Source: a virus | Taxonomy: Duplodnaviria; Caudoviricetes | DNA: 64,000 nucleotides | Virus record (IMG/VR): IMGVR_UViG_3300025389_000010 | Coordinates: 161,757-225,756 of that record | Direction: 5' to 3' (one strand) | In this document: piece after piece, positions 29,213-52,800 of the stretch | How the letters are laid out: each line of letters begins with the position of its first letter | Position numbering within the stretch: position 1 is the stretch's first letter | Made by a program: the position numbers and the translations under genes | The notes under the pieces: generated by a model | Databases searched by the model: none | The model's input: only the letters and a program-made list of their open reading frames with translations | What the model was told of the DNA's origin: nothing

Positions 29213-29219
29213 AAACAAA

Positions 29220-33478: not shown

Positions 33479-33516
33479 TGTGTGTGTGTGTTGGTGTTTG
33501 GGTTTTGGGTTGGTTC

Positions 33517-33922: not shown

Positions 33923-33924
33923 GA

Positions 33925-34810
33925 CTACCGTTGAGCCGTGCGTATTACCTTGCAATACTTACAATGCAATATAAGACAATACATTACAATACCTTCACTT
34001 ATAAGACAATACAATATAACGAATTGTATCGTAATATCCTACAACTTTTTACTTTACAATTCCTTTGAAATCTACTTGGGAATCATTTCTTTCAATTCCT
34101 TTGAAAGATTCCCCTACAATCATTCCCCAATACCTTCCCAATATCCCTGTATCTGTATTGGTAATACCCTTGGGCAATATCCCTTTGGCCCTTCGGGGCC
34201 AATATGTATTGCCAATTCCCTTGCCCAAACCTTTGTCCCTACTATTGCCTCGTGCCTATCAATACATTCCCAATTTATTTCCAATATCTTCCCAATACTA
34301 TTTCCAATACATTGTCAATACATTTATTTCTTTATATTTTATTGTATTGCCTTGACTTTTGTCTTCCTTATGATCCTTGTATCGTTATGTCTTTTCGTAT
34401 CGTCATGCACACAATCCCCCCAATCTTGTTGTGAGGTAGCACCCTGTTGCAATTTTACACGGTGTTGCATTAAAACAGAGTTTGCCATTGTCAATACATT
34501 GTATTTTTATAGGTAAAACATTGCCCTATAATACCATACCTTGTATTCGCTATGATCTTGGTAGCACATTTTAATACATTGTCAATACTTTTCTTACAAA
34601 AAATTACATTGTAAAGTGAGTGTAATAAGAATATCTTACCAATGTTTGTTACAATGTTTGCCACAATGTAATAAGAATATCTTCCCAATGTTTGTTACAA
34701 TGTAATAAGAATCTCTTCCCAATGTTTGCCACAATGTAATAAGAATATCTTACCAATGTTTGCCTCAATCTCTTCTCAATGTTTGCCACAATGTAGCAAG
34801 AATCTATTTC
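33925..34810. repeat. Non-coding CAAT-rich block with 34-bp tandem repeats (candidate origin/iteron region)
   Basis: TGTAATAAGAATATCTT(A/C)CCAATGTTTG(TT/CC)ACAA at 34621, 34667, 34701 and 34735, plus a degenerate copy; G-poor plus strand; no credible ORF. Confidence 0.7.
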
Positions 34811-35337
34811 CAATTAAATCTTATGTAGTCTTTTATTGTATTGCTATTTCCTACTCTGTAAATATATTTGATACGCTTCAAGGGTTTGTTGAATCCCATG
34901 TCATAGATGGTTCCGTTGACTACTGCAAAGGCATGATCTCTGGTTACTGCTATGTATCTTCCCCTGTAATAGTCCATGAGCATTGCCCTTATTGTGAGTC
35001 CTTTCTTTGGGAGTATGTATTGGATCTGGTATCCTTCTGTCTTTATTAGGGTTTCCACTATCTTGTGTGTCCAGAATCCTTCGTTGTCTTTCCTTCCTGC
35101 TTGCCTTGCATAATCATGTGCTTTCTTGTATGGTAGTCTTAATGCTACTGCTATTGCCATGACTGTGCAGTTGTTGGTGTCTATGATCCTGTCCTTTGAT
35201 GCTCCTCCGTCTGTTATTATCGTTTTGGCCTTTATGAAACTTTCGTGTGCTTTCAAGAGAAGAGTTCCTTTATGGTTAGAATTAAGCATCCTACATAGTA
35301 TTGTAGTAGTGGTTGTTCTCTTACAATGCAGAACCAT
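34804..35337 (-). CDS. Conserved phage protein with papain-like Cys-His-Asp spacing (tentative)
   Basis: NNCTVMAIAVA...DHAFAVVNG.IYD. Confidence 0.55.
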   Translation of the reverse strand: MVLHCKRTTTTTILCRMLNSNHKGTLLLKAHESFIKAKTIITDGGASKDRIIDTNNCTVMAIAVALRLPYKKAHDYARQAGRKDNEGFWTHKIVETLIKTEGYQIQYILPKKGLTIRAMLMDYYRGRYIAVTRDHAFAVVNGTIYDMGFNKPLKRIKYIYRVGNSNTIKDYIRFNWK

Positions 35338-35681
35338 TCACCGTTTGGAGCCTTGTTCATTATCATTCCGTTCTTGAAGCGTAGGTAGATTTCTGATTCC
35401 TCGTTACAGGTTGGGCAGATTCCTTTCCTTATGACATTGACTCCTTTATTGCCATAGGTTGCATTGACTTCTAGGTTTGTGGGTATTGGTAGTCCTTGGT
35501 TTTCGCAGTTATCGTTTATGCAGGATATGGGTTCCTCTTCAAAGTCTTTTCTCATTTCGTCTTCATCGTATGTAGTCTCATGTTGTGATATATCATACAA
35601 TTCGTGCATCCTTTCCTCTGTTAATACCCTGTAATGGGTTGTAAAAAATACTCTTAATGCGGTAAATGGATCTATTCTCAT
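35253..35681 (-). CDS. Zn-ribbon protein
   Basis: CINDNC...CPTC. Confidence 0.6.
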   Translation of the reverse strand: MRIDPFTALRVFFTTHYRVLTEERMHELYDISQHETTYDEDEMRKDFEEEPISCINDNCENQGLPIPTNLEVNATYGNKGVNVIRKGICPTCNEESEIYLRFKNGMIMNKAPNGEWFCIVREQPLLQYYVGCLILTIKELFS

Positions 35682-35827
35682 GGTGTATAACCTGTTATTT
35701 TGTTGTAATTCCTTATTTTACTCTGTTAGCCTATAATTTTTCTTGTATTTTTATAGTATTTTTTCTCCATTTTGCCCCACTTTGGCCCACTTTTTGAAAC
35801 TTTTTCTTATATTTTTGGGCATTTTTA

Positions 35828-36058
35828 TCAGGGATATTGATGAATAATCTTGTCATTCATCATCTGTAATATGGAATACTTTGTAAGTTTTTTCCTACCT
35901 GCATTTCTTTGTTGCTGGTATTGTTGGTCGAGTGCTTCCCTTGCTTCTTCCAGAGTATCGAAATAGTAGAGTTGTGTATCCTCATCGACCTTGTTGCCGA
36001 AATAGGTATTTGTCCATTTTCCTCTGCTCCACCATTGGATATGATACAATGTTTTCAT
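35828..36058 (-). CDS. Hypothetical protein
   Basis: Start refined to MKTLYHIQ (ATGA overlap). Confidence 0.6.
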   Translation of the reverse strand: MKTLYHIQWWSRGKWTNTYFGNKVDEDTQLYYFDTLEEAREALDQQYQQQRNAGRKKLTKYSILQMMNDKIIHQYP

Positions 36059-36645
36059 ACCAGTTCTGGATGATCTTTCTTGGTCTTGGTATAGTCTGAC
36101 CACACTTGTAGGTCAAGTTTGGCGGGTGTCATGCCTCTGTTTTCTGCTTCCATCAGGAACCATCTTTCGATTTCGGGGTAGCGTTTCTTGCTTGGGGTTG
36201 CCTTTGGGACATCGTATCCAAGGAACTTCATCCACTTCAAAATATGGGTATCAAGGACTGCTACCTTGGTGTTGGGTCTGGAATGAAGGACAAAGAATCT
36301 TGCTGTCTTGCTTCCTATTCCAGAGATGCTTTCCAGTTCTTCTATGGTAACAGTCTTGAGTCTTCCCTTGAACTGAAGGATCTCCTTGAAGGCATGACCG
36401 ATCCTCTTATATTGTCCTAACTTGAACTCTCTCATGTGGATCTCTAGCCAATTATTCTTGATGAGAAATTCAAGATGATCGAAAGGCTTGCCTATCTGTT
36501 CCCACATACAACGCTTGAGAAACTCGTCGAGCTTCTTTGCCTGTTGCTCTGCTCCCTTTCCTGCCACAAGGATAGCGAACATTAGGAACTCTTCCAACTC
36601 CTCCTCTGTCCTGTTGAAGTTGGTGATGGTCTTTGGGGTTATCAT
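36055..36645 (-). CDS. HhH-GPD superfamily DNA N-glycosylase/lyase (Ogg/EndoIII-like)
   Basis: HhH motif LESISGIGSKTARFF with catalytic Lys, followed by VLDTHI with catalytic Asp. Confidence 0.8.
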   Translation of the reverse strand: MITPKTITNFNRTEEELEEFLMFAILVAGKGAEQQAKKLDEFLKRCMWEQIGKPFDHLEFLIKNNWLEIHMREFKLGQYKRIGHAFKEILQFKGRLKTVTIEELESISGIGSKTARFFVLHSRPNTKVAVLDTHILKWMKFLGYDVPKATPSKKRYPEIERWFLMEAENRGMTPAKLDLQVWSDYTKTKKDHPELV

Positions 36646-36656
36646 TGTATTACTTC

Positions 36657-36809
36657 TTAATTCCTTGTTTCTTGTTGTTCTTTAAGTTCTTGCCACAAGG
36701 ATTGTATGATCCTGTTGGCAGTAACAAGCATCTCTTGGGCATCCTGCTGTGCCTCTGGATATTTGTCAATTAGGGTTCTGTATGCGTTTTGTAGTGCAGG
36801 AGTATTCAT
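36657..36809 (-). CDS. Hypothetical protein
   Basis: Start refined to MNTPALQ. Confidence 0.5.
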   Translation of the reverse strand: MNTPALQNAYRTLIDKYPEAQQDAQEMLVTANRIIQSLWQELKEQQETRN

Positions 36810-36943
36810 TAGAAGAGATGGATGAAGTAGTTGATAGTGGTAGCGATTAGCATGATGACACAAACCAGCATCATAAATGCAAGGAAGGCAATCAAGGGTA
36901 AAAGTGCTTCAGCTTCGATTTCAATTTTCATTGTAGGATATTT

Positions 36944-37252
36944 TTATACATAGTCGATTTGACAACCAGTAGCTTCCCATTCGATGTTGTTGGTGTCAAA
37001 CCAATTTTTGATGTCTCTCTGGATTTGTAGCTTGCGTTTGTCCTTCAGTTTGCCTTCTGTCCATTCTCTCATACCGTCTGCATTAAAGACTCTCCACGAT
37101 ACTTGGTTTTCACCTATTGCCTTACGATATTTAACTTCGCACCACATGGGTTTATCCTCATAGGTGAACTCATGTGTCGTGTCAATGAACTCATATCCAT
37201 TGCCGATACATCTGTGATCGGTCTTTTTGGCAATTAGCCTTAATTCATTCAT
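36944..37252 (-). CDS. Hypothetical protein
   Basis: 102 aa in an overlapping chain. Confidence 0.6.
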   Translation of the reverse strand: MNELRLIAKKTDHRCIGNGYEFIDTTHEFTYEDKPMWCEVKYRKAIGENQVSWRVFNADGMREWTEGKLKDKRKLQIQRDIKNWFDTNNIEWEATGCQIDYV

Positions 37253-37515
37253 GGTAAGGGTAGGTTTTCGCAGTCTATCTTGATAATACGATATTTTACA
37301 TTGGAATACGATGCTTTCATCTGTTTGCTGATATTTGCCAGATCGTTATGTCTTTGTATTGCATTCTTGTATTCCTCTATAATGTTCTTGTAGTCACCAG
37401 AGTCCATGATGTTCTTCCAATCCCTCATCCTCGGTGTCTTAAATTGAAGGACATAGAAGTGCGAGTCTCCGTTCTGGTTGGAGTGCCATTCGTATATTCC
37501 GTTTGTAACGATCAT
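37249..37515 (-). CDS. Hypothetical protein
   Basis: Start refined to MIVTNG. Confidence 0.55.
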   Translation of the reverse strand: MIVTNGIYEWHSNQNGDSHFYVLQFKTPRMRDWKNIMDSGDYKNIIEEYKNAIQRHNDLANISKQMKASYSNVKYRIIKIDCENLPLP

Positions 37516-37703
37516 TGGTTTTCGTCCTCTGGATGGTTGTCCCTGCAATACTCTGCAATACCGGCATCGTATCCCATCTTGTATTGTGCATAGTTATACA
37601 CATCCATTTCGTTACTCCAAGGATTGTCTTCTACTCCTTGCTCATACGCATCGACGAATCCCCTGCAATAACCGATATTTCTCGGATTAGGTTGTAATGT
37701 CAT
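37512..37703 (-). CDS. Hypothetical protein (Rmf/CrpP-like pattern, tentative)
   Basis: GYCRGFVDAYEQG...NPW...Y..GYDAG. Confidence 0.55.
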   Translation of the reverse strand: MTLQPNPRNIGYCRGFVDAYEQGVEDNPWSNEMDVYNYAQYKMGYDAGIAEYCRDNHPEDENQ

Positions 37704-37918
37704 TGTAAGTCCTTATTGTCCTTGATCTTACGCACAACTGGTTGAAGGTTGTGCATGATTGTCTGAAGGTGTTCGCTAGTCTCTTCGATGGATTCGGTTA
37801 GTTCCTCGTCCTCTGGATTGGTTGATCCTTTGCATTGCCACAGGATACTCTCCGCATCCTTGATGGCATTATACATTGACCAGAATGTGTGTTCGGTGAT
37901 GGTGACTTTGGGTTCCAT
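37700..37918 (-). CDS. Hypothetical protein
   Basis: 72 aa; TTGACT-17-CATAAT upstream. Confidence 0.6.
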   Translation of the reverse strand: MEPKVTITEHTFWSMYNAIKDAESILWQCKGSTNPEDEELTESIEETSEHLQTIMHNLQPVVRKIKDNKDLQ

Positions 37919-37961
37919 GTTGCCGATTATGGTTTAGGGTTTGCTTGGAGTCAATAGGTTT

Positions 37962-38339
37962 TTACCACCAAGAGTCATAATACACTTTCCTACCTTGACT
38001 GATCTCATACATTGCAGTTGCAATGAAGTGAAGATCCTGCTTTTGGGATTCTTCGTCAGGAGGATTGTTGCCAAAGAAAAACCCTGTGGTCTTTGGTAAG
38101 TCATTGGTTAATATAGCTTTCTGAAGATTTGCAAGATCCTCCATTGTAAGAAGGAGTGGGATACAGTTAAACGACTGCTCCTTGCCTCCCTTCTGACGAT
38201 AGAGTTTCTCCATCCAACCATGTAGGTCATGGTGTTTCCTCCAATACTGGATCTCTTTACGATCTGCTCCCTTGCGGATCTTGAACTTCGATAGCCCATC
38301 CTTCTTGGCTACCGAATAAGTATACATATCGAGTCCCAT
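37962..38339 (-). CDS. Conserved phage hypothetical protein
   Basis: MGLDMY...YWRKH..LHGWM...FFFG...VYYDSWW family pattern. Confidence 0.75.
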   Translation of the reverse strand: MGLDMYTYSVAKKDGLSKFKIRKGADRKEIQYWRKHHDLHGWMEKLYRQKGGKEQSFNCIPLLLTMEDLANLQKAILTNDLPKTTGFFFGNNPPDEESQKQDLHFIATAMYEISQGRKVYYDSWW

Positions 38340-38343
38340 ATTA

Positions 38344-38616
38344 TTATTCCTTGATGCCGTTGTCTTTCAATGTCTGTGCAAACTGCTCTTCTGATGCCTT
38401 CTTGCACTCGGAATAGTCCTTGAAAGGAGAACGAGCATAGGAACTTGTGTCCTCCCAATGGAACGATACTCTTGCCCAATTATCTGCCTCGAAAAAAGCC
38501 GCACGATGCACAACACACTCATGTTGCCATACAAGGCAGGTTATCGTATTGGTTAAGACAACTACCAGCAATGCCAGTAGCGTTATTACAATGTTGTTTT
38601 TGGTTTGGTCTGTCAT
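38344..38616 (-). CDS. Membrane-anchored hypothetical protein
   Basis: N-terminal TM helix. Confidence 0.55.
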   Translation of the reverse strand: MTDQTKNNIVITLLALLVVVLTNTITCLVWQHECVVHRAAFFEADNWARVSFHWEDTSSYARSPFKDYSECKKASEEQFAQTLKDNGIKE

Positions 38617-38635
38617 TGTTTTGCTTGGTTTTGGC

Positions 38636-39040
38636 TTATCCATAAATTACTTCTCCAAAGAGACAACATTGTAAGTAGACATCTGATGTCTCGGCATCGT
38701 CGTTTTCATTAAGGAAGTTTGCCATGTGGTATGGGTAATCGCTTGCCATAACCTGTAATCCCTTTGCCATACTCTCTAGGTTCAGAGTATAGGTCTTGCC
38801 CTTCTCATAGTTTGGAACGCTAATGATTAAAGCCCCACCTTTGTTTGTAGGATAAGATAGATGACGAAACTCCCTGTCATCCTTCTCGGTATTGTCAAAG
38901 TTTTCGGGCTTTACAAACTCGTCGATCTGATACCAGTAGTTCGATCCTCCTTCAAATGCTCCACACAGGAGATCGGACAGTCTATTGATTGTCACATCCT
39001 GCCTGTATCCTATCGTTGCCGGTTTCATTGTCTTGGTCAT
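38636..39040 (-). CDS. Conserved phage hypothetical protein
   Basis: YW...DAETSDVYLQCCLFGEVIYG C-terminus. Confidence 0.7.
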   Translation of the reverse strand: MTKTMKPATIGYRQDVTINRLSDLLCGAFEGGSNYWYQIDEFVKPENFDNTEKDDREFRHLSYPTNKGGALIISVPNYEKGKTYTLNLESMAKGLQVMASDYPYHMANFLNENDDAETSDVYLQCCLFGEVIYG

Positions 39041-39366
39041 TTTGGGTGTTGGTGTTGGTTGGAAAATTGTTCCCTGCTCCTCCGTCGAGGACTATCTTCG
39101 CTAAAAGATTCGGCGTTGCAATCGCACAGGGATTATTCGTAGACAGATTCCCCTGTCTACACGGGAGTTGCTCTCTGCCTTTTGCTCCGACTTGAGACGG
39201 ATTGGAAGCATCTTTTCTTCCAAGTAGCATTTCAACTATTGAGGATCTTATAGATTTTTGTGGTCAGGTCAATACTTTTTTTATGGTATGTCATCGTCAT
39301 CGTTTGCCCAATGAACCAGAAGGATTATCACTATCCAGAGAATGAGCAGGATGTCAAGGATGATCG

Positions 39367-39606
39367 TCATTTCACATGGAGGACATATTGCCCTCTAATG
39401 TAGATCGTATTGCCATGAATTGCACAATCATTCAGGTCATCCATGAAGACCGTGCAGTATTTTCCACTTACAATGATGTCATCGTCATCTTCGATCTCCT
39501 TGTTGATGAAGTCGATGTTGAGGTTGTATGAGTCAGAGGCATGGAATCCCTCGACCTTTTTTGCATTTTTCAGCAAGTCTAGTGCTATTAGTGCGTTTTT
39601 TGTCAT
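39367..39606 (-). CDS. Hypothetical protein
   Basis: Start refined to MTKNAL. Confidence 0.55.
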   Translation of the reverse strand: MTKNALIALDLLKNAKKVEGFHASDSYNLNIDFINKEIEDDDDIIVSGKYCTVFMDDLNDCAIHGNTIYIRGQYVLHVK

Positions 39607-39929
39607 AGTGTTACATTCTCCCACATTGAAATTAAAGGTTCGTCATTGTTAGAAATAAAATCGTTAATCATCTGAATTACCCGTCTCTTCTGCTTGTCCT
39701 TGGTTTCCACGCTAAAAGTCTGCGTGTTGCATCCCTTGAAATACAAGTGTTCCCTGCTATTGGTGTCTTTGTATTTCCTCTTGGAGATGATAACGGATCT
39801 GAACCTGTTATACATATTTGCATCTCCGTTGAAATCTTGGAGATCAAACACAATCTTCCACTCGGTGTAGATACACTCCCACTCGGTTCCGATTGCGGCT
39901 CGACTAATTTTTTTGTCAAGAATTTTCAC
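39603..39929 (-). CDS. Hypothetical protein
   Basis: 108-aa ORF. Confidence 0.55.
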   Translation of the reverse strand: MKILDKKISRAAIGTEWECIYTEWKIVFDLQDFNGDANMYNRFRSVIISKRKYKDTNSREHLYFKGCNTQTFSVETKDKQKRRVIQMINDFISNNDEPLISMWENVTL

Positions 39930-39962
39930 TATTTTGTTAGCTTAATTTGTAAGTATTGTTGT

Positions 39963-40442
39963 ATGAAAATTTGTGCTATATGTCAATCCCAAATTCCATC
40001 ATGGGTTGTAATTGATGGTAAAAGAAAAAACCTTCAACGGAGAAAGTATTGTTTAACTTGTTCACCTTTTGGCTTACATAATACTGCAAAGTTAAATGTT
40101 CCATTGGAGATTAGAGGTAGGGGCAGGATAAGAAAAAAGGGTGACACATATAAATATCAAAAGGAAAGAGGATTGAAAAGAAAAACCAAACTTGTAAAAT
40201 TATATGGTGGATGTTGTAAAATATGTGGTTACAAAAAGAATCTCGGTGTATTACAATTTCATCATAGAGATCCTAAAGAAAAGATAAGTCAATTAGATGT
40301 TCGTATAATAACAAATAGGACATGGCAATTTTGCCTTGATGAAGCAAAGAAGTGTGATTTGCTTTGTGCTAATTGTCATGCGGAGCATCATTATCCAGAA
40401 TTAAGTAAGTGGGCCGGGTCGGAGTCGAACCGACAGTCTTGA
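39963..40442 (+). mobile_element. HNH homing endonuclease with Zn fingers, antisense insertion next to a tRNA
   Basis: CAIC...CLTC; GGCCKICGY...LQFHH.DP..K...CDLLCANCH; AT-rich; TAAGTA before the ATG at 39963. Confidence 0.8.
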
Positions 40443-40483
40443 CCGTTATGAGCAGTATGTTTTAACCCTTAAACTACCAGCCC
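40410..40483 (-). tRNA. tRNA with CAT anticodon, probably Ile2 (lysidine type), otherwise Met; CCA not encoded
   Basis: Cloverleaf GGGCTGG/CCGGCCC-A, loop CT-CAT-AA, T-loop TTCGACT; C4-G69 and G68 resemble Ile2. Confidence 0.8.
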
Positions 40484-40516
40484 TTACTTAAATTTGTTAG
40501 TTGATGTTAGACTTTG

Positions 40517-40699
40517 TTAAGCCTTTTCGATACCCTCCAACAAGGTAAAGGTCTTGAGGTGTTTGACGGCATCACCCATTGCAGAGTCGAGAGTGATGAA
40601 CATTCCCTGCTCTTGCGTGTTGCCATCCTCATCGTCGTAACGATAAGCGTATCCTGCCTCTTTGTAATAAACCAGTTGGAGTGTTGGTATGTGTTTCAT
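40517..40699 (-). CDS. Hypothetical protein
   Basis: 60-aa ORF. Confidence 0.55.
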   Translation of the reverse strand: MKHIPTLQLVYYKEAGYAYRYDDEDGNTQEQGMFITLDSAMGDAVKHLKTFTLLEGIEKA

Positions 40700-40705
40700 T
40701 GTATG

Positions 40706-40918
40706 TTAGATAATGGTTGATTCCATGTCGATATTGGTATGGATCATAAGTTCCTCAATATCGTCAATGAATGAGTCCCTTGCCTCGACCCAATTTTCAA
40801 TGTCTTGCTCTGTTGCACCTTCCTTGTTCTTCTGAACAAAGGCGAGGAGCATATCGTTAAGAGAGTCTTTAAGACCGTTCTTGATTTCGTCTATCATTTG
40901 TGCGGATGCTGTTTTCAT
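40706..40918 (-). CDS. Hypothetical protein
   Basis: 70 aa; TTGACA-17-TAGAAT promoter at 40930-40958. Confidence 0.65.
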   Translation of the reverse strand: MKTASAQMIDEIKNGLKDSLNDMLLAFVQKNKEGATEQDIENWVEARDSFIDDIEELMIHTNIDMESTII

Positions 40919-40932
40919 GTTGGAATATAATT

Positions 40933-41205
40933 CTAGCCGATCTTTGCAGGAATGTCAATAGGCAATTCACAATAATTTTCGTGTTGCCAATTATGCAATG
41001 CCCTACCAAGTGCGATCCTGTTGCCAAGTTTGCGATTCGGATGATCCTTGTCGTGGCAGACTGCAATGCCCTTTGAGGTATTACCTACCCTGTCTGTCAA
41101 GAAGATTTCGGTGTGGTATTGCGAGTTGTGACAAACGAATACTTTCCAACCTTGTTTGCGGAGTTGTTCGATTGTCAGATGTTTGATGTCTGGTTTGTTG
41201 TGCAT
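40933..41205 (-). CDS. Conserved phage hypothetical protein
   Basis: G.AVCH.KD...RKLG..IALGRA pattern. Confidence 0.6.
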   Translation of the reverse strand: MHNKPDIKHLTIEQLRKQGWKVFVCHNSQYHTEIFLTDRVGNTSKGIAVCHDKDHPNRKLGNRIALGRALHNWQHENYCELPIDIPAKIG

Positions 41206-41209
41206 TGTA

Positions 41210-41428
41210 TTATCTCTCCTTGCTTAACAATTCGTTCTTGATGTCCTGCTGAAGTTCCTCCAAGTCCTTTAAGATTTCAGATGCCTCATCTAGTAATTCC
41301 TTGATCGACTCGTCCTCGACATCGAACTCGTCAAGGACGGCATCGAGATCGGAGAGGAGTGTTCCTTCTGCGACTCCACACCATTCGAGGAGTTGTCTGG
41401 TTGTTGTTTTTTCTGTTGGGGTTTGCAT
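41210..41428 (-). CDS. Acidic hypothetical protein
   Basis: 72-aa ORF. Confidence 0.55.
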   Translation of the reverse strand: MQTPTEKTTTRQLLEWCGVAEGTLLSDLDAVLDEFDVEDESIKELLDEASEILKDLEELQQDIKNELLSKER

Positions 41429-41633
41429 AATTTGTAAATCGGTCTATGTGGTATGAATGTTCTCATTGAAGGACAAGTTCATTCTCTGTCATATAAGCGA
41501 ATTGATCCTGTGGGTGTGCCTTGAAGGTTCCGATTGTTCCGACTTCTTCTGACACAAAGAACCAGATGCCTTCGATCAGAACAGCAGGACGACCCATCTT
41601 CATTTTGACTTGTGTATGTGCTTGTATCATATA

Positions 41634-42254
41634 TCAATCCTCCTCTTCCTCGTTATCTTCCATCATTTGATAGTAGTTGTCAAGATCCAAGTCGTAGTAA
41701 AGATCACTACCCTCTGGAATCTCATCCATGTCCTCATAGCAGTTGTCTTGCTCACCATCGGGGCCGACGATGTATTCACCTGCAAACATATATCCTTCAT
41801 CGAAATATGTCATGCGAAGTGTTTCGCCGGTCAACTTTGCAAGCTCTCGTATGACTGCAATCGGTGGACTCCATGCCGTCTGGAAACTTATGTCACCAAA
41901 GTCCTCGACATTGTTGATGCTATCGTCCTCCAATGTCCAACAACTGTATGCGTTCCACTTGGTGTCCCATTTGTCAACACTCCAATCATACCAGTTCTTG
42001 TAACCATAGTCCTTCAAGTTCTGCTCTTGTAAGAGGTCGTGTTCCTTCTGCCTTGCGTCTATCTCCTCCTTGGTTTTCGGTTCGGTGATCTTCTCTATCG
42101 TAGATTCTAGGGTAGTCTTGTAGATTCCCTCTGGCATAGGGATTATCTTGTTGAAGTCAATACTCTTGCCATCATCTGTAAGATAAGGCTTGATGACTTC
42201 TCCGATATTCTTTCCGCTAGTGCAGGAAAGACTGTTTGTGCAATGATTAGGCAT
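41634..42254 (-). CDS. DUF1281/YubB ferredoxin-like fold protein
   Basis: MPNHCTN...DFNKIIPMP...WYDW...WDTKWNA...F.TAWSPP...YFDEG. Confidence 0.8.
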   Translation of the reverse strand: MPNHCTNSLSCTSGKNIGEVIKPYLTDDGKSIDFNKIIPMPEGIYKTTLESTIEKITEPKTKEEIDARQKEHDLLQEQNLKDYGYKNWYDWSVDKWDTKWNAYSCWTLEDDSINNVEDFGDISFQTAWSPPIAVIRELAKLTGETLRMTYFDEGYMFAGEYIVGPDGEQDNCYEDMDEIPEGSDLYYDLDLDNYYQMMEDNEEEED

Positions 42255-42460
42255 TGTATTATGTTGTTTGTTTTGGTGTTGGGGTTAATCTCTTACCAGA
42301 AACAGATGTCCTTGGTCAAGCACATCATTGGTTTCTTCCTCGGAAAATTCCGTTCTGGTTATGGGGTAGTATTCCTCATCCTCGGCATCGTAGATCGTGA
42401 TGGTATCCTCCAACCGATCCTTGGGCATGGAGTAAAGAATGTTGAGTAATTCAGCGTATG

Positions 42461-42670
42461 TCATTTGTCAAATGGTGTGGAGTAAGACCAAGAAGGTTCT
42501 GCTTTTACCTTGAAGAACATTCCGATCAACGGAAGGTTCGGGTGAGTTTGGAGTTTGACCCTGTAATCGGCATAAGCCCACAGGAATGATGCAACGAATC
42601 CCATCGCTAGGATGATGTTGACTCTGGTTGTGTATCTTCTGGATCTGATTATTGTTCTTGCTGATTTCAT
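42461..42670 (-). CDS. Small membrane protein
   Basis: One TM helix. Confidence 0.5.
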   Translation of the reverse strand: MKSARTIIRSRRYTTRVNIILAMGFVASFLWAYADYRVKLQTHPNLPLIGMFFKVKAEPSWSYSTPFDK

Positions 42671-42892
42671 AGTGGGCCGAATTTATTGTAGTAACAAATG
42701 ATTACAAAGAGTAACAGGAAAGTGAGTAAGGTCATGTGGTTGTAATACGATATTGATTCTTCAATCCTGCCATTGTATCCCAAAGGGTGAAGGTGTCAAT
42801 CCTATTCTGTGCTTCTTTTTGGGAATCGGACTGAACATTGTTGATGCTCACCCACTTCTTCAACGATGTGTTAAAGTATTCGACAATGTATT

Positions 42893-43114
42893 TCATTCGA
42901 TTTCGTAAATGTGAGTGCTGGTCGTTGTCTGCTTGATGCGATAGAAGTTGGAGATGTGAACTCCTGCTTCGTTGTCTGGATCGTTGCGATAGAGGTGTCT
43001 TGCTCCTTCTTCTGCATCCTCTCTGTTCTCATAAGTCAGGGAATATCTGTCAGACCACTTCCTACGATTATAGACTTCGATAGTGAAGACGGTTTGTGTC
43101 TCGGTGTTAGTCAT
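42893..43114 (-). CDS. Hypothetical protein
   Basis: Start refined to MTNTET. Confidence 0.55.
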   Translation of the reverse strand: MTNTETQTVFTIEVYNRRKWSDRYSLTYENREDAEEGARHLYRNDPDNEAGVHISNFYRIKQTTTSTHIYEIE

Positions 43115-43370
43115 GGTAAATGTGTGCCGTGATCTCGTTGGCTTGCGTGTCGAATGTGATCCTAGTAGCAAACCCTCTCATAATGCAATGAGGTTGTTTC
43201 TTCTGTGCATGACTCTCAATATAGGGAACCTTGATCTTGACATGGTTGACCATGTGGCAAGCACCTTCCCAATGCACGGTCATGACATTACGACCCTGCT
43301 TCCTTGCCTCTGCCTTGTTGTAGTGGTAGAAGAATCTCTTGGGTTTGACTGCAATGATATTGTTTTTCAT
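43107..43370 (-). CDS. Conserved phage hypothetical protein
   Basis: FFYHYNK...MTVHW.G.CH...QP.C.MRG; start refined to MKNNII. Confidence 0.6.
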   Translation of the reverse strand: MKNNIIAVKPKRFFYHYNKAEARKQGRNVMTVHWEGACHMVNHVKIKVPYIESHAQKKQPHCIMRGFATRITFDTQANEITAHIYHD

Positions 43371-43374
43371 TGTA

Positions 43375-43578
43375 TTATTCCTCGTAGGGGATGTCACTTG
43401 CAATTTCATACACATTCCACAGGTCTTTGTTGAGAGTGTGAGAATACTCAAGCGGTTCGTCGGGTGTGCCAGTAGTGGCATACTTGTTCTCGGCAATTTC
43501 GATTGCCTCTTCGGGACTCTCTGCCTCGACATACATCGTGGCATAATGAACTTCAGGGATGCTTACGCTATATTTCAT
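43375..43578 (-). CDS. DpnD/PcfM-like small protein
   Basis: MKYSV.I.E......VEAES.EEA.E.AE. Confidence 0.6.
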   Translation of the reverse strand: MKYSVSIPEVHYATMYVEAESPEEAIEIAENKYATTGTPDEPLEYSHTLNKDLWNVYEIASDIPYEE

Positions 43579-43865
43579 TTTGCTTTGGTTGGTTTGGTTA
43601 TGGAGACTTTAGCTTTGCAGAGATCCTTGCTCTGGTCAATCGTTTTTTTCTCTTTTGCGATTCTTTTTTTTCTACGAGTGATAGCCTTGGAAACTTCCTT
43701 TATGATGTCGGGTTTGAGATAACTGTCATTGCTTGTATCAATATGTGTGTCAAGAGGATTGCCACTCATTGTAGTATAATCGGTTACATAGATTTTGGCC
43801 TTGTCATGCTTCATGATATAGACCTCCCTTATGATAATGTCCTTCGTGTATTGCAGGATTCTCAT
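43575..43865 (-). CDS. Hypothetical protein
   Basis: 96 aa; TTGCAT-16-TACGAT-6 nt-ATG. Confidence 0.6.
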   Translation of the reverse strand: MRILQYTKDIIIREVYIMKHDKAKIYVTDYTTMSGNPLDTHIDTSNDSYLKPDIIKEVSKAITRRKKRIAKEKKTIDQSKDLCKAKVSITKPTKAK

Positions 43866-43945
43866 ACCCTGATCGTATCATCATCGTGTATGGATGCAAC
43901 AACTTTTTTTGAAAACATTGTAATACGCCTCCGTTGCCGGGTGAC

Positions 43946-43987
43946 GATTTGTAAAACAAAGTTTTAATATTCTTTGTTTTACAAATA
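43946..43987. repeat. 42-bp palindromic element
   Basis: GATTTGTAAAACAAAG-TTTTAATATT-CTTTGTTTTACAAATA. Confidence 0.9.
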
Positions 43988-44024
43988 TCGCAGCGGGAAG
44001 GTTCGGTGGTCGGATCTGAAAACG

Positions 44025-44058
44025 AAAAACCCCACCACCCTTTCGGATGATGGGGTTT
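44025..44058 (-). terminator. GAAA-loop terminator after the tRNA cluster
   Basis: Identical to the hairpin at 32943-32976. Confidence 0.85.
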
Positions 44059-44104
44059 CCCATGAACAGGATCTTACTTCATGTAAGACCCTTACCAACA
44101 AAGT

Positions 44105-44180
44105 TGGTGGGATCGTCGGGACTCGAACCCGAAACCAATTCGTTAAAAGCGAACTGCTCTACCGATTGAGCTACGATCCC
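44105..44180 (-). tRNA. trnK: tRNA-Lys(UUU)
   Basis: 76-nt cloverleaf, loop CT-TTT-AA, encoded CCA. Confidence 0.95.
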
Positions 44181-44207
44181 TAAAGTCATTTTTGTTTCGT
44201 TGATTGT

Positions 44208-44282
44208 TGGTGCATCCAGTAGGAATCGAACCTACATATAGGCTTTAGAAGAGCCTTGTCCTATCCGTTGAACGATGGATGC
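44208..44282 (-). tRNA. trnR: tRNA-Arg(UCU)
   Basis: 75-nt cloverleaf, loop CT-TCT-AA, encoded CCA. Confidence 0.95.
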
Positions 44283-44293
44283 TTTATTAAGGT

Positions 44294-44388
44294 TGGAAGT
44301 GGCGGAGGGAATCGAACCCTCGCTAATCCCACATCTAGGGAAGTTATAGGTATAAACTATATCGTGCTTCCAATTACACTACGCCACC
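44294..44388 (-). tRNA. Atypical long-variable-arm tRNA with UAU anticodon (nominal Ile; identity uncertain)
   Basis: 95 nt; acceptor GGTGGCG/CGCCACT-T-CCA; stem TATAG/CTATA around TT-TAT-AC; about 23-nt variable region with a TCCC/GGGA stem; T-loop TTCGATT. Confidence 0.75.
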
Positions 44389-44397
44389 TTGTAAGTT

Positions 44398-45717
44398 TTA
44401 GTCCTCCTTGGTTTGAGTTGCCTTCTTGAAGAAGTTCCTCAAGGCATTAAGGACAGTCGTTGTATCCTGCTTCTTCTTGATGAAGCGACCCTTCTCGTCC
44501 CTGACATTGTGATATGCCGTGGGTGTCGGTGTAGGCTTGCTGGTGTTCTGGTTTTCGTGGCAACCACATTGACCTCCGCAACATCCATCGTTGCCCTTAT
44601 TGCCTACCTCATCTTCCTCGGTGTAGGTGTATCCACACTTCTTGTCGAGGTAGTCGGTCAAGGTTGGTTCCTCATTCGTGGTCTTGCCAGCACATCCTCC
44701 TCCGTAGCAACCAGAGTATTCATCGTCGTAGCAGTTATCACAAAGGTCGTCACCATTGCCGTTGTAGTTCTCGTTATTGAGTTCCAACTTGCAGGAACAG
44801 CAATTACCAAGTCCTTCATCGTCATCGTCATCCTTGCACAGATAGCAAAGATTATCTCCGTTGCCATCATAGGTTTTTTTGTTCAAGAATCCTCCACAAT
44901 TATCGCAGGTATCATCGTTGTCATTGTCCTCATACTCTCCACCATCGGAGGAGTAGAGATCAGAGTCGAACCCATTCTCTCCACGATCCAGTTTGCTCCT
45001 CCAATCGTCGGTGTATTCAGCAACAACCTCATAGCGACAGGTGCGACCCTTGGTGTTGTTGTAGTCGGCAGGGATCGCCACAACATCCTTGGGATTGATC
45101 TTAACAATCATCGTATGACCTCCGCTTGAATCCCTGAAGTGAGGGAGGTATGCAATCGAACAGAAGTGCAGACCATAGGAGCAAGTGCGATCCTTGTCCT
45201 CATCGACACGATTGCGAGGCATCTCACAGACCTTGCCAACGGAGTTGTCGAACTTCCCACTATGAATGTCCTTGTAATCTGCCTTGACATTCTTGTAGGC
45301 AAGGAAGCAACCATCCTCGGTGATCGGGAGTTCCCCAACCTCAAGGAAGTCGTAGAGTTCATCTACTGCTCTCTTGGAAGGATTCTGCATGAGGTTCTCC
45401 AAGAACTTCACAAGAGGCTCAAACGGAAGATCCTGCTGAACAAAGCTAATGATCCTCTTGGTGAGAGTATTATGGAGTTCTTCATCGTTATACACAAGGA
45501 TGCCGTCCTTAATGGAAATACCATGTGAGAGGTAGGCATTGAGTTGACGAGAGACATCGACATACTCCACGAACTTGTGCCAGAATCCGTTCTTCACGGC
45601 ATCCAGCAGGATGTGGTAGTTGGGATGGTCGGTGTCAATCGCATAGGACTGACCGTTGACAAATGCGGCGATCTTTCCAGATCCCGTAATTGTGACTGCG
45701 TTGTTGGTGGTGTTCAT
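44398..45717 (-). CDS. rIIB: RIIB-like protein with a Cys-rich acidic C-terminal extension
   Basis: PITEDGCFLAYK...MPRNRVD...CSYGLH...KINPKDVVAIP.DY...KGR.CRYEVV; follows rIIA. Confidence 0.85.
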   Translation of the reverse strand: MNTTNNAVTITGSGKIAAFVNGQSYAIDTDHPNYHILLDAVKNGFWHKFVEYVDVSRQLNAYLSHGISIKDGILVYNDEELHNTLTKRIISFVQQDLPFEPLVKFLENLMQNPSKRAVDELYDFLEVGELPITEDGCFLAYKNVKADYKDIHSGKFDNSVGKVCEMPRNRVDEDKDRTCSYGLHFCSIAYLPHFRDSSGGHTMIVKINPKDVVAIPADYNNTKGRTCRYEVVAEYTDDWRSKLDRGENGFDSDLYSSDGGEYEDNDNDDTCDNCGGFLNKKTYDGNGDNLCYLCKDDDDDEGLGNCCSCKLELNNENYNGNGDDLCDNCYDDEYSGCYGGGCAGKTTNEEPTLTDYLDKKCGYTYTEEDEVGNKGNDGCCGGQCGCHENQNTSKPTPTPTAYHNVRDEKGRFIKKKQDTTTVLNALRNFFKKATQTKED

Positions 45718-45727
45718 AGCGTTAATG

Positions 45728-45755
45728 ATCTTATCAGGGTTTTGCTCGGTGTCAA
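45728..45755 (-). promoter_or_regulatory. sigma70-type promoter of rIIB
   Basis: TTGACA-16-TAAGAT. Confidence 0.7.
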
Positions 45756-45770
45756 TACGATTTCTTTGTA

Positions 45771-47795
45771 TTACTTGAGATTTTCTACAAGCAGGAGAAC
45801 TTCGTCAATCGACCAGTTATAGGTTCCAATCCTTGACAAGAGCAAGGAGATTGCCTTGTTAGACCCTGCATACTTGATCGGTGTGTTGGAACGAAACGAG
45901 TGACCCTCAAAGAGCAAATGGTCAATACTCCGATACTTGTAATACTTATCCATGCACTCGTTGACCTTGTTGACAAAGACCTTGAACTCGTTGTCCTTGG
46001 CAAGTGACATGAACTTGCTGTGCTTTACAATGTTCTGAATTGTCGATTGGTTGTAGTGATAGCAAGTTGCAAGACCTTCTTTGTCAATGTCGATCTTGAT
46101 GTTGTCGTTGATCCATTTGATAAAATCAACACAAGTGGCAGGAAGGTTCTTGACATTGTTCTCGGAAACCATGACCACATCCTTTTCGGTAAGTTCCATG
46201 AACTGCATGACCCGATACAGGTCACTCTTGTTGGCAATAAACTTTTGCAGACCCTTGATCGGGAAGTTGATGTCGTAGTTTTCCTTGGGTTTGACAAGGT
46301 AAAACTTTGGAGTCTGTGCATCGAATACCTCGGCATCCCAACCCTTCTTGTCGAGATCACCAAGATAATAAAGGTTGAACTGACCCTTGACCCTTTGCGT
46401 GGTCGTGGTCGTGCGACCCTTGCGTGATGCAGGGATGGGTTTGGGCAGACTGCTCACAGGCAGGAATGATTCCTTGGGGAACCCATTGGCAATCATCTTG
46501 TCGTATGCCTTACTTGAGAATACACAAATCTTGGTGTCCTCGTTAGACCTGACATGATGCCTGACACGAGAGATGCCACCCTTGATGTCATCATGGTAAT
46601 ACCATGTGATATTACGACCCATCTGGACATTGTGACTCTCGTTGATCTTGGTTCTGTAATACGAAGGCTTGCTGTATGTAATGCAAGGTATGGGATCGTC
46701 GGAAATGTGGTTGACCACATTAGCCTTGATGATCTCCCTGATGAAACCGTATGGATCGGAAATGTCCATGCCCTTCCACATGAGTTTGTCGATCTTCATA
46801 CCTTGTATGAAAGCGAACTGGTTGTGCAGGGTATAGACCATGTGCAAGGCATCGTAGATGTTTGTCTTCTCGGCAAGCATCTCGGTCAACCTCTTCTTGA
46901 AGTCCTCTTGAACCATTGCCAACTTGTCGTTGAGTGCCTTGATGGTTGCAGGACAATATGAGATAGACTCACGACTTGGAGTGAAATCAATCTCACCCAT
47001 CTTGAAGTGCAGGACAAGGTTTGCTTTGTAAAGCATATCCCGATACTTGCCGTCGAGCTTATAGGAGTTAATGGGATAGTTGACTCCTCCCATGATGGCA
47101 AAGCTACCATTCCAATCCTTCTTGCTATCGGCATAGCTTTCCCATCCATCGCCCTTGAACATGGGTGATTCAATGTTCCACTCGATCTTACCTCCCGTGA
47201 TGGTAGGCTTAACAGAGAAGAAACGAAATGCCTTGAAGGTTGCCGTCTTGAAGTCCTCAAAGTCACTTGCCTTGACAGGGATCTTGATGGCAACTCCGTT
47301 CTCCTCGGTCGTGTTCTCGGTAGATACCAGAGCAATGGCAGGAGTGTTGTGTTGGTTGAAGAAGGCATTGTATGTCCTCTTCACACCCTCATGGATACTC
47401 GTCACGGTGAAGGCATCGGTGTAGCAGAAAGGAGACTTGCTACCAAGACCAAGGCATCCAACTTGGTCATCGGTGTTGGTCTTTGTGCTTTCAAAGTATG
47501 TCGCATAGATATTGTAGATGTTCTCATGCGAGATGCCGGTTCCGTAGTCTTGAATGGTGATCCAAGGCTCAAGTGTATTGGGCAGATGAATGTGGAAGGG
47601 ACGATCCTTCTTACCAGATGCAACCATGCTATCGCTTGCATTGCATCCCAACTCACGCACGATGGCGAGAGGCTTATCGGAGTAGAGGTCAGAAAGAATC
47701 TGAAAAGCCTTGCGGCTTGACTTCATCTTGAACTCGTTCTCCTGTGTCACTTGTCCGATCTGCTCGACTGTGTTGGTGTTCTCTATCAGTTTCAT
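45771..47795 (-). CDS. rIIA: RIIA-like protein (GHKL ATPase N-terminus)
   Basis: LYSDK..AIVREL..NA.DS, IQDYGTGIS, STK...DQVGCLGLGSKSPF. Confidence 0.85.
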   Translation of the reverse strand: MKLIENTNTVEQIGQVTQENEFKMKSSRKAFQILSDLYSDKPLAIVRELGCNASDSMVASGKKDRPFHIHLPNTLEPWITIQDYGTGISHENIYNIYATYFESTKTNTDDQVGCLGLGSKSPFCYTDAFTVTSIHEGVKRTYNAFFNQHNTPAIALVSTENTTEENGVAIKIPVKASDFEDFKTATFKAFRFFSVKPTITGGKIEWNIESPMFKGDGWESYADSKKDWNGSFAIMGGVNYPINSYKLDGKYRDMLYKANLVLHFKMGEIDFTPSRESISYCPATIKALNDKLAMVQEDFKKRLTEMLAEKTNIYDALHMVYTLHNQFAFIQGMKIDKLMWKGMDISDPYGFIREIIKANVVNHISDDPIPCITYSKPSYYRTKINESHNVQMGRNITWYYHDDIKGGISRVRHHVRSNEDTKICVFSSKAYDKMIANGFPKESFLPVSSLPKPIPASRKGRTTTTTQRVKGQFNLYYLGDLDKKGWDAEVFDAQTPKFYLVKPKENYDINFPIKGLQKFIANKSDLYRVMQFMELTEKDVVMVSENNVKNLPATCVDFIKWINDNIKIDIDKEGLATCYHYNQSTIQNIVKHSKFMSLAKDNEFKVFVNKVNECMDKYYKYRSIDHLLFEGHSFRSNTPIKYAGSNKAISLLLSRIGTYNWSIDEVLLLVENLK

Positions 47796-47837
47796 GGGTG
47801 TTGGTGTTTATGGGTTGGTGTCGTATTGACAAGGGAC

Positions 47838-47865
47838 AATCTATACGATGGATCACCCGTGTCAA
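47838..47865 (-). promoter_or_regulatory. sigma70-type promoter of rIIA
   Basis: TTGACA-16-TAGATT with upstream A-tracts. Confidence 0.7.
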
Positions 47866-47927
47866 AACTTTTTTCGGTGTCCGAAACTTTTTTTATTTTT
47901 CCGTTGACAAGATACTTTGTATGATAG

Positions 47928-48003
47928 TGGTAGATGTGGTGAGACTCGAACTCACACTTGACGGATTTTAAGTCCGTTGCCTCTGCCGTTGGGCTACACA
48001 TCC
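47928..48003 (-). tRNA. trnL: tRNA-Leu(UAA) with a short variable loop
   Basis: 76 nt; loop CT-TAA-AA; 5-nt variable loop; A73; encoded CCA. Confidence 0.9.
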
Positions 48004-49885: not shown

Positions 49886-52800
49886 TTAAATCGGCATCAA
49901 TTTTTCTCTTTGTAATGAAGGGGTGATTTTCTGTGTAAAATCACCGATACTAATAGATATTGGAATATCATCACTATGATCATTACCATAAAATTGATCT
50001 AAAAACGATTCTAAAGTTTTAGGGTTTTTATTTAAACTATATCTGGATGTAACCAAATAAAATAAATCATATGCTAAGATGTATCCACTATACCCATTGA
50101 CATCTCTTTCGGAAGAAGGTATTTTTATTTTTCCATTTATTATATTGTTAATCACACTTTTACGTTCTTCTTTATTATTTACTTTTATTTCTTTTACAGT
50201 TTTATTATCATTTATACTATAAACACACAAATAAAGAGGATATGAACTAGAATTTTTAACATCATTAAAAGATTTTTTGTAATTTAAAGTTTCAATATTA
50301 AAAACTTTAACCCACTTTAAAAATTCATTACAAGCATTTATATATTGCTGAATTGTTTCAAAACCAAAAATTTTAATTTCTTTATTTATTTTATGTATTT
50401 CAGAACCATAAAAAGTTACATTTTCAATATAATTTACACTACTCTCTATTACTCTAGTTAGTGCTACTATATCTATATTAGAATAATTTTCAATTGGGTA
50501 ATTGTATCCATCAGCTTTAAGTTTTCCTAAAAATTTAGCAACCCAAGGATAATTCTTTTTAACTTCTTTTATAAACAATTTATTAGTTATTGTATTTGTT
50601 GTAGGTTGTTTATAAAAAAAATCAGGTCTAATTTCATCATCATATATGTACATTCTATTCTTTTTAGAATCATATGCACCGAAAAGATTATGTCTGCTTT
50701 GTAAAATCTTATTATTGAAAGTTACAACACTTTCCGATAATACCGATTCTGTTAAATTTTTATTATCAATGTTTTTATATTGTTCCGGTGTTAATTGAGC
50801 AATATCATTTATTGTTTCTTTAAAATTTTCGGGAAATGGAGAGTTATCAATTGATACATATAACATACCATATTTTGTTTTTATATTTTTAAATCTACCA
50901 TATGTTGGTTTAGCGTTATAACTATAAAAATAAATTTTATTTAAATATTCACATTCATCATTATTTTGTTTTTCAAACATTTTTAATGTTTTATTTAAAA
51001 ATGTTAACATATGTTCAATATTTTTTATTTTTTCAACATACCAAATTGTTCCATATTGATTACCGTAAGCTTCACGGCATGATGATGTTACTGATGCATA
51101 TAAAGGATAATTTGAATCATTAAATATAGTATGTGAATAATGTCTATCAAAAATATTTCTAAAATCTTTTAAAAGTTTTAAAACTTTTTCTGACAATCCC
51201 GGTTGATTATATTCTTCATCAAGCCATTTATTATCAGCCCTAATTTGCAATACTGCTGAATCCATCTCTTCTATATATGGAAATTGTTTTTTAATATATT
51301 CTTTAAAATATTTTTTAAAATATTTTATACCCATATTGTTTTTGGCTGGTTTGTTTGGGTTTGTTAAAATTAGATCAAGAAAATTACCAGTATAATAACT
51401 AATATTTTTAATAAGTTCTTGTAATTTTTCTTGATTAGAATCTTCCGATACTAATTCTTCTTTACTTTCCGATATTGCATAATATGCTAATTCACCAGAT
51501 TTAATATGTTTTTCAACATCATAAAATTCATTTGTTTGCCAATAAAAATCCTTTGCGTCTAATGAACTTCTACTGGTAACGACAAAGGAATAATAATATC
51601 CGGGGTTTCCTATTTGTTCATCGTAATCAATATCTGCAAAAACATCGCTTTTTGGAATTTCTACTCTTGTTTTACCGGTTTCGATATTTTTAATTTTGGT
51701 CTTTAATTCTTCTGGATTATTTACTTTTACTTTTAATACAACTTTGTAGTCATTTAAACTTACAACATTTAAATACAATGGATAATTTTCTTTGTTATTT
51801 ATATCTTCATTAAATGAATCATTTATTATAGTTTTTTCAAGGCTTATTAACCAATTTTGAAAAGATATAAATTGTGACAAAGCATTTTCTTTTGTTTTAA
51901 ATCCAAAAACATTAAGATATTTCTTCAAATTAGCTTCATCGGCAGGATCTGTATATTTCGTATTATTTTCATGAAAATTTTTAACATAATATATGCTACT
52001 ATCAACATCTCTTTTTGTAGCATCTATTAAATTTAAAATCTGAGAATGTTCTATTGTAACATAATCAAAAATATCTTTCCAACTTCTATCGTAATCATAA
52101 TTTTTAGCATGTGACACTAAAGATTGTCTATTTTTCATAAACAATGCATTTGAAATAAGTTTTTTAGCCCAAGGGTATTTTTCATCAACTTCATGTTTAA
52201 TGATATTGCTATATTTTATAAAATTTATTTTTGTTTTGTATCCGTAGCTGATAGGAAATATTGAATTATGATTGAAGAAAAACTGATTTGTCTTATTATT
52301 ATAAACTGCCGTGACTTTACTTCCTCTTTCACCTTTTTCGCTCCAAACAAAAGGTATAATTGCTTCCGATAATATATTTTTAATATCTTCTGTGTCAATA
52401 GAACCTTTATCTATTATATCACTTAAAGCTTTTTTTAGAAGATTTATTTCTTTTACATATTCTGCATAACTTTCTTTACTCGCTGATTTAATCGATGCTT
52501 TTGCATTTTTTATAAATCTTTTATCTTGATTAACATAATCTAAGTTACCTTTTACCATTACATCAAAATTTATATATATGCTTTCTATTTCTTTTAAAAA
52601 TTCACTGTTATCACTAAATGTTTTCTGTAATTGTTCAATATTTTGTTTATTTTTAAGATTTTTAACTGCATTGATATATTGATCGTAATTTTCTATCAGT
52701 TTATGATAATATATAGTTTGATGTGCTCCATAATTTACAATAGCCCTAAGAACCACGGGATATGACCATGAACTTTCTAAATTTGTTTTATCGGTTTCCT

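Follow-up and report, generated by a model that had tools for sequence, protein, structure and literature searches.

The reading of AUA apart from AUG has so far been solved by lysidine, agmatidine and related cytidine derivatives or by an adapted IleRS. The unadapted synthetase reads G34 or L34 together with A35 and U36, and lactic acid bacteria are among the organisms that possess a TilS-independent class I tRNA-Ile(UAU). Other such tRNAs are tRNA-Ile2 of Mycoplasma mobile (PMC3575796) and a Bacillus subtilis suppressor (PMC3919564), in which a genomically encoded UAU in a canonical loop reads AUA as isoleucine without lysidine. The IleRS of E. coli charges tRNA-Ile(UAU) inefficiently owing to the stacking of Trp905 against the wobble base; UAU is recognized again when this residue is replaced by Arg, as in M. 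mobile (PMC3575796).

The anticodon UAU is also found in tRNAs with a long extra arm. In allo-tRNAs the acceptor and T stems are by definition arranged 8/4 or 9/3 and a tetraloop closes a long D stem; these tRNAs are regarded as serine acceptors or as inactive (PMC5389517). Nematode nev-tRNA-Ile(UAU) likewise combines a long arm with UAU (PMC3333845, PMC4300185). A different kind of precedent is offered by the E. coli thrS operator, where ThrRS binds a copy of an anticodon arm outside of its normal position (reviewed in PMC9976931). The locus described here shares features with each of these systems. It encodes a phage tRNA(UAU) that carries, next to its decoding arm, a second hairpin with the loop sequence GAU.

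Gene, genomic setting and anatomy of the tRNA(UAU)

The window, which is the whole stretch of 64,000 nucleotides that was analyzed, forms the final 64 kb of a phage record of 225,756 bp rated as complete by CheckV (IMG/VR). The phage is T4-like with a 226-kb genome of 32% G+C, and no phage isolate has a large terminase more than 34% identical to its own. ARAGORN called 17 tRNAs genome-wide and five within the window. Among these five is the 95-nt tRNA(UAU), which spans 44294-44388 of the minus strand and has its anticodon at position 35. The preliminary description of this DNA had proposed a tRNA finder and covariance models as checks on this gene, and both ARAGORN and Rfam call a tRNA here; the match to RF00005 scores 49.6 bits (gathering score 29, E 1.8e-8, model positions 1-71) and places a 20-nt insertion in the variable region. 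The gene opens a cluster of three tRNAs located downstream of a 439-aa open reading frame of no assigned family. It is followed on the same strand, after 11 nt, by tRNA-Arg(UCU) at 44208-44282 and then by tRNA-Lys(UUU) at 44105-44180 (minus strand), both called by ARAGORN and Rfam. A scan for promoters and terminators gave a count of sites not above that in shuffled sequence.

The window is uneven in composition. A stretch of 20 kb, from 28000 to 48000, has 41-47% G+C in comparison to 23-37% in the rest of the genome and contains all five tRNAs of the window along with many small open reading frames. The most A+T-rich part (23-28% G+C) holds an open reading frame of 1833 aa (49886-55387, minus strand) for which no convincing Pfam match was obtained.

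The anatomy of the tRNA(UAU) was read from the sequence and agrees with what had been noticed before: the loop UU-UAU-AC within a 5-bp stem, an extra region of 23 nt, U73 and an encoded CCA. The acceptor stem comprises 7 bp including a G1-U72 pair. The D arm has a 4-bp stem and an 8-nt loop (AAUUGGAA, including G18G19). The T arm, GAGGG-UUCGAUU-CCCUC, has a 5-bp stem and is followed by the discriminator U73 (44297) and the encoded CCA (44294-44296), both placed by ARAGORN and Rfam. Tested against the sequence, the acceptor/T arrangement is 7/5, and both the D loop and the T loop are canonical; an 8/4 reading was rejected, as its eighth acceptor pair would set U8 opposite C. The decoding arm, here arm X, occupies 44345-44361 on the minus strand and consists of the stem UAUAG/CUAUA and the loop UUUAUAC with U33, A37 and the anticodon UAU at 44352-44354. 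Between the D stem and arm X lies the linker G-A (44362-44363), two bases where ordinary tRNAs have one, which bears out the extra base reported earlier for this position.

The 23-nt extra region is composed of three unpaired bases, a hairpin UCCC-UAGAUGU-GGGA and five unpaired bases. In a register-based parse the hairpin, here arm Y, lies at 44327-44341 (minus strand) with the stem UCCC/GGGA and the 7-nt loop UAGAUGU, and GAU in the center of this loop falls on 44333-44335. The five unpaired bases UUAGC (44322-44326) separate arm Y from the T stem and match a class I variable loop in length. GAU is the anticodon of the major tRNA-Ile. This hairpin with its central GAU and its five trailing bases was absent from the preliminary description, which had assigned the tRNA to class II by its long variable arm. 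The 23-nt region stands, whereas an arm of the Leu, Ser or Tyr type does not, given the 4-bp hairpin, the 7-nt GAU loop and the 5-nt linker. The layout is most simply described as that of a class I tRNA-Ile body with two putative anticodon arms in tandem.

For the comparison with class II tRNAs, 74 further long tRNAs, of the types Leu, Ser and Tyr plus a few of other kinds, were drawn from the viral contigs that carry the family. Their extra arms carry 4-nt loops in 46 of 74 cases and 3' linkers of 1-3 nt in 64 of 74. A centered GAU occurs in none of these 74 controls, nor in any of 28 long control tRNAs on the bacterial loci. Class II membership (Leu, Ser, Tyr) was rejected on account of the 7-nt GAU loop, the 5-nt linker and the combination of UAU with U73, in place of G73 (Ser) or A73 (Leu, Tyr). 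An intron-containing tRNA, be it with a group I intron or with another insert that could be spliced, was rejected as well: the insert, some 20 nt long, is not part of the anticodon loop and forms a conserved, covarying hairpin, and Rfam recognizes only a tRNA. The idea that the extra segment might be spliced out thus finds no support.

Other unusual tRNAs were encountered on these sequences. The window contains, at 47928-48003 on the minus strand, a 76-nt tRNA with the anticodon UAA for the leucine codon UUA that is devoid of a long variable arm. To our knowledge, bacterial tRNA-Leu always belongs to class II. On the fetched loci, mostly viral, short tRNAs (<80 nt) with Leu anticodons account for 25 of 63 distinct sequences with UAA, 18 of 27 with CAA and 17 of 28 with UAG, and many of them have the D arm UAGYCCAACGGCAGAGRCA in common; on the same loci none of 28 Tyr tRNAs and two of 77 Ser tRNAs are short. 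As judged by codon exchange, TTA behaves as a leucine codon in the phage with the short tRNA(UAA). Phage tRNAs of 84-87 nt with a short extra arm were found at L018, L013 (record G004), L051, L077 and L089; their anticodons are CAU, GUU (Asn) and UUG (Gln), their D arms are Leu-like, and their extra loops hold no copy of an anticodon.

A family of two-arm tRNAs in phages and bacteria

The preliminary description had pointed to homologs in related phages as a further check, and these exist. A search with the 439-aa neighbor protein led to eight related viral loci, and the related records G001, G002 and G003 carry a tRNA(UAU) of 94-95 nt with the same five-arm layout. The copies in G001 and L091 match that in the window except for one loop base and for compensatory changes, which lie in the acceptor and T stems. 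In G002 and G003 most stem positions are changed and every helix is kept. The presence of the gene in three related records, with differences confined to compensatory stem changes or loops, confirms that the tRNA(UAU) gene at 44294-44388 is real and more than a chance match. Folding of the single sequence did not recover arm X, the stem of which is nearly all A-U (z-score -1.8), and the structure given here is based on comparative evidence instead.

A pattern scan of IMG/VR yielded 65 contigs. Two further scans were anchored in the D arm: with the UAU loop fixed and the second-arm loop free, 50 contigs were obtained, and with neither loop fixed 45, all within the set of 50. UAU occupied the first arm in all 45 contigs of the latter scan. 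In the D-arm-anchored scans the second-arm loop followed YNGAUNN with a single exception, a further member that reads GAC. The patterns behind most of the family sample prescribe parts of the loops; the D-arm-anchored scans, which are free of this bias, cover one subfamily. A further 52 loci came from prokaryotes, scanned at one genome for each species; they include tRNA arrays of Pyrinomonadaceae as well as loci from Marinobacter, Microbulbifer, Ruegeria and others. The carriers thus comprise unrelated phages as well as bacterial chromosomes, and 106 distinct sequences from about 90 viral contigs and the 52 bacterial loci were aligned. Exact matches to 38 nt of the window tRNA were not found in the viral contigs, no family member turned up when the region and one typical member were compared by blastn with 50,697 phage isolates, and a search for a class I ancestor by the D arm of the window tRNA returned a single short tRNA, an unrelated tRNA-Trp. 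A full-text literature search retrieved no paper that describes an extra arm with GAU in a tRNA(UAU). The two-arm tRNAs(UAU) with a GAU loop are a widespread family for which we found no published name.

At the loci L002 (5672-5830) and L005 (7673-7830), a tRNA(CAU) of 75-78 nt lies just upstream of tRNA-Arg(UCU) and downstream of the homolog of the 439-aa protein, in the slot that the two-arm tRNA(UAU) has in the window. If this tRNA(CAU) is a lysidine-type tRNA-Ile2, two AUA decoders would have replaced each other at one site.

In the alignment of 106 sequences the stem of arm Y is paired to 94.6%, and all four pairs are changed on both sides. One of these pairs is GC in 47 sequences, CG in 45, AU in 7 and UA in 7, and unpaired in none. 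RNAalifold predicted arms X and Y independently from this alignment. Across the family arm Y is a stem of 3-5 bp closed by a 7-nt loop in which GAU takes positions 3-5. The unpaired stretch between arm Y and the T stem, for which 4-6 bases define the family, measures 5-6 nt in all but one of 59 viral members; the window copy with its UUAGC fits on both counts. In bacterial members arm Y is followed by AGGUU or AGGUC, which resembles the variable loop of an ordinary tRNA-Ile. The loop of arm Y reads G-A-U in 105 of the 106 members, the exception being GAC. Its position 1 is always a pyrimidine, position 2 is A in 101 of 105 (in part a product of the search patterns), position 6, which corresponds to position 37, varies freely, and position 7 is A in 83 of 105. 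U33 and A37 never occur together in arm Y. Arm X, by contrast, has U33 and A37 in every member, with the loop consensus YUUAUAN in 106 of 106.

The linker between the D stem and arm X (44362-44363 in the window) covaries with the two bases directly behind arm Y (44325-44326) in the subfamily with the D arm GUGUAAYUGGAAGCAC: CG is coupled to CG after arm Y in 38 sequences and GA to UU in 11, a pattern that amounts to one or two independent switches. These bases may form a 2-bp helix that closes the junction bearing both arms.

The discriminator is A73 in 95 of 106 members and U73 in nine, the window copy included. A relaxed discriminator as a family trait was given no weight, since bases other than A73 (11 of 106, compared with one of 64 in class I tRNA(UAU)) are restricted to one or two clades. 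Nor does G1-U72 mark the family, a wobble pair common across many types of phage tRNA. Its share on the fetched viral and bacterial loci reaches 82-89% for Glu, 44-59% for Leu, 38% for Val and 35% for Ile(UAU) tRNAs, and it is absent from Thr, Pro, Ala, Asn, His, Asp and Cys tRNAs and from most Ser and Gly tRNAs.

Codon use and the meaning of AUA

ATA makes up about 40-42% of the isoleucine codons of the phage, or 34 per 1000 codons in open reading frames of at least 200 aa. AGA accounts for 68% of the arginine and AAA for 77% of the lysine codons, and the favored codons TTA, AGA and AAA match the neighboring tRNAs with the anticodons UAA, UCU and UUU.

The preliminary description had considered that the tRNA inserts serine or leucine at AUA. 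The meaning of the codon was assessed by its exchanges. Two related genomes were fetched whole, and reciprocal-best orthologs (98, 41 and 30 pairs) were aligned codon by codon. In the 98 pairs shared by the phage and G003, ATA stands opposite codons for isoleucine in 55% of cases, valine in 14%, leucine in 12% and serine in 2.6%, and ATT opposite the same amino acids in 60%, 13%, 12.5% and 0.3%. In all six genome-to-genome directions among the three genomes, 51-58% of the ATA codons face isoleucine codons, and the profile of valine, leucine and serine is like that of ATT and ATC. The profile of ATA differs from that of TTA (chi-square p 6e-79) and from that of TCA (p 7e-131). An alignment of the DNA polymerase with 118 homologs (52-80% identity) likewise shows ATA exchanging as isoleucine. 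The test is valid even though both phages carry the tRNA, because true leucine or serine sites would mostly be written with ordinary leucine or serine codons in relatives.

A small excess of serine at ATA appears in the comparison of the phage with G003 (14 of 527 codons versus four of 932 for ATT and ATC, p 0.00065). It was not seen in the other five comparisons, which include the reverse direction and two other genome pairs, and was rejected as a sign of recoding, being confined to one genome pair and unreplicated. Since ATA exchanges with isoleucine, valine and leucine as ATT does, with a profile unlike those of TTA and TCA, recoding of AUA to serine or leucine is rejected. As codon exchange indicates, the tRNA almost certainly reads AUA as isoleucine rather than serine or leucine. 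Programs that find tRNAs report genes of this type as unusual members of class II, so that recoding is easily claimed in error; codon exchange offers a check on such claims that requires sequences only.

Charging, alternative roles and relation to known systems

We consider that the gene probably encodes a working phage tRNA that supplies the decoding of AUA as isoleucine independently of TilS, with charging by IleRS. In this model arm X, with UAU, U33 and A37, would read the codon AUA, and the genomically encoded U34 would make lysidine, and with it TilS, dispensable. The phage genome contains no IleRS-family synthetase and no TilS-type enzyme. The latter fits the earlier suggestion that the tRNA evades a dependence on TilS, and the lack of a synthetase implies that host enzymes must charge the tRNA(UAU). 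Among five sampled bacteria with a family member, TilS is present in four, where the tRNA would hence be an extra AUA decoder and not the only one. The equivalent of Trp905 is kept in all five, an observation of low weight as Trp is the default state. Given the poor charging of UAU by the E. coli IleRS and the Trp retained in the carriers, the GAU hairpin is a plausible route to a charged UAU tRNA. The host IleRS would use the GAU loop of arm Y as an identity handle, so that identity and decoding would reside on separate arms, and a swapping of the arm that stacks under the D stem is conceivable as a working mode. As U33 and A37 never occur together in arm Y, it would be a recognition copy rather than a decoding loop.

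That arm Y presents GAU to the host IleRS as a charging handle is put forward tentatively, and four points keep this step below an even chance. Plain class I tRNA(UAU) was present in 70 of the first 119 viral matches, which argues against arm Y as a general need. In E. coli A73 is a determinant for IleRS, and t6A37 adds to recognition; the U73 of the window copy, in a family that mostly has A73, and the variable position 37 of arm Y both count against this step. Finally, arm Y would have to swing or to swap its stacking in order to reach the anticodon-binding domain of IleRS. A natural tRNA that splits identity (GAU arm to IleRS) from decoding (UAU arm to AUA) is, on balance, a possible but somewhat doubtful description of this family.

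Arm Y may instead be kept for another partner or purpose, with isoleucine still carried by virtue of UAU and the tRNA body. Fold stability, the discrimination of AUA from AUG with an unmodified U34, or a shield or bait for a nuclease or toxin directed at tRNA-Ile(GAU) come into question, and we regard such roles as rather unlikely. The common occurrence in viral contigs of class I tRNA(UAU) without arm Y indicates that hosts evidently use bare UAU, arm Y nearly always lacks U33 and varies at position 37, and a fidelity device would be useful given that, on ribosomes of E. coli, AUG is misread by the tRNA-Ile(UAU) of M. mobile (PMC3575796). A structural or ribosomal role, however, leaves unexplained why G-A-U is retained at the anticodon positions in 105 of 106 members while stem, flanks and body vary, no nuclease partner co-occurs, and the family is spread over unrelated phages and bacterial chromosomes. 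The decoy and the evasion of an anticodon nuclease proposed in the preliminary description may hold but gained no support. A reversal of the arms, with arm Y as the true anticodon arm for AUC and AUU and arm X as an accessory, or decoding by both through alternative stacking, would account for the class I register in which arm Y and the next five nucleotides run into the T arm, and for the tRNA-Ile-like AGGUU or AGGUC after arm Y in bacteria. It is very improbable nonetheless, as position 33 of arm Y is mostly A and permits no U-turn, U33 and A37 are joined in arm X alone, and the special need of the phage is ATA.

Charging by SerRS or LeuRS, through the long arm and U73, would lead to serine or leucine at AUA as recoding or deliberate mistranslation. 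LeuRS and TyrRS require A73, and most family members have A73 and not G or U; their arm geometry and loop are moreover unlike those of the 74 Leu-, Ser- and Tyr-type and other long tRNAs. Mischarging at a codon used 34 times per 1000 would harm nearly every protein, and isoleucine is the main partner of ATA in six of six genome comparisons. The serine excess of the one comparison speaks for this explanation and was not repeated in the other five. Further arguments in its favor come from other tRNAs, namely the leucylation in vitro of nematode nev-tRNA(UAU) (PMC3333845, PMC4300185) and the view of Mukai et al. (PMC5389517) that a long arm with G73 or U73 is a sign of serine identity in allo-tRNAs. 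Taken together, we give serine or leucine charging hardly any credence. Improbable, too, is a gene without translational use, be it a regulatory RNA, an element linked to a toxin-antitoxin system, a selfish tRNA-like RNA or a decaying gene. Members from Acidobacteria (Pyrinomonadaceae) do lie in dense tRNA arrays, and Mukai et al. (PMC5389517) report that the tested allo-tRNA(UAU) variants were inactive in E. coli and suggest non-translational roles. Against this stand the canonical D and T loops, the 7/5 arrangement, the perfect anticodon loop and the encoded CCA, the compensatory changes in every stem among close relatives, and the clustering with tRNA-Arg and tRNA-Lys, which fits the codon use of the phage.

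If charging through arm Y holds true, a spare copy of an accepted anticodon would constitute a further, structurally new solution to the reading of AUA and the first natural case of a synthetase identity moved onto an extra arm. Phages and mobile elements could then bring an AUA decoder that needs no TilS into hosts with an IleRS that refuses UAU, which would be of interest to tRNA evolution and to the engineering of orthogonal tRNAs.

With the class II tRNAs (Leu, Ser, Tyr and Sec) the window tRNA has in common a fifth helix between the anticodon and T arms. In the class II controls the arm mostly ends in a 4-nt loop without a set sequence, and 1-3 nt lead on to the T stem; the window tRNA contrasts with them in its extra base after the D stem, its 7-nt GAU loop and the 5 nt ahead of its T stem. 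The class I tRNA-Ile(UAU), which shares with it the encoded UAU in a canonical loop, has four arms and relies on a UAU-adapted IleRS (Arg865 in M. mobile); the window tRNA has a fifth arm with GAU and U73, and the sampled carriers of the family keep the unadapted Trp. To allo-tRNA(UAU) (PMC5389517) it is similar in the long extra arm, UAU, U73 and the occurrence of both in Acidobacteria. It differs in its 7/5 arrangement, its 4-bp D stem and its 8-nt loop with G18G19, and no mention of a GAU loop was found in the passages on allo-tRNAs that were consulted. A kinship with allo-tRNAs, which had been raised along with a parallel to nev-tRNA, is contradicted by the 7/5 arrangement and the normal D arm. 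The parallel to nev-tRNA-Ile(UAU) fails as well. That tRNA has a eukaryotic Leu-type body and is leucylated in vitro, whereas ATA behaves as an isoleucine codon in the phage and the extra arm is a different structure. A likeness to arm Y in function may lie in the thrS operator, where the mimic resides in an mRNA leader and regulates translation; the copy in arm Y would lie within a tRNA and serve its charging, and the resemblance is one of analogy only.
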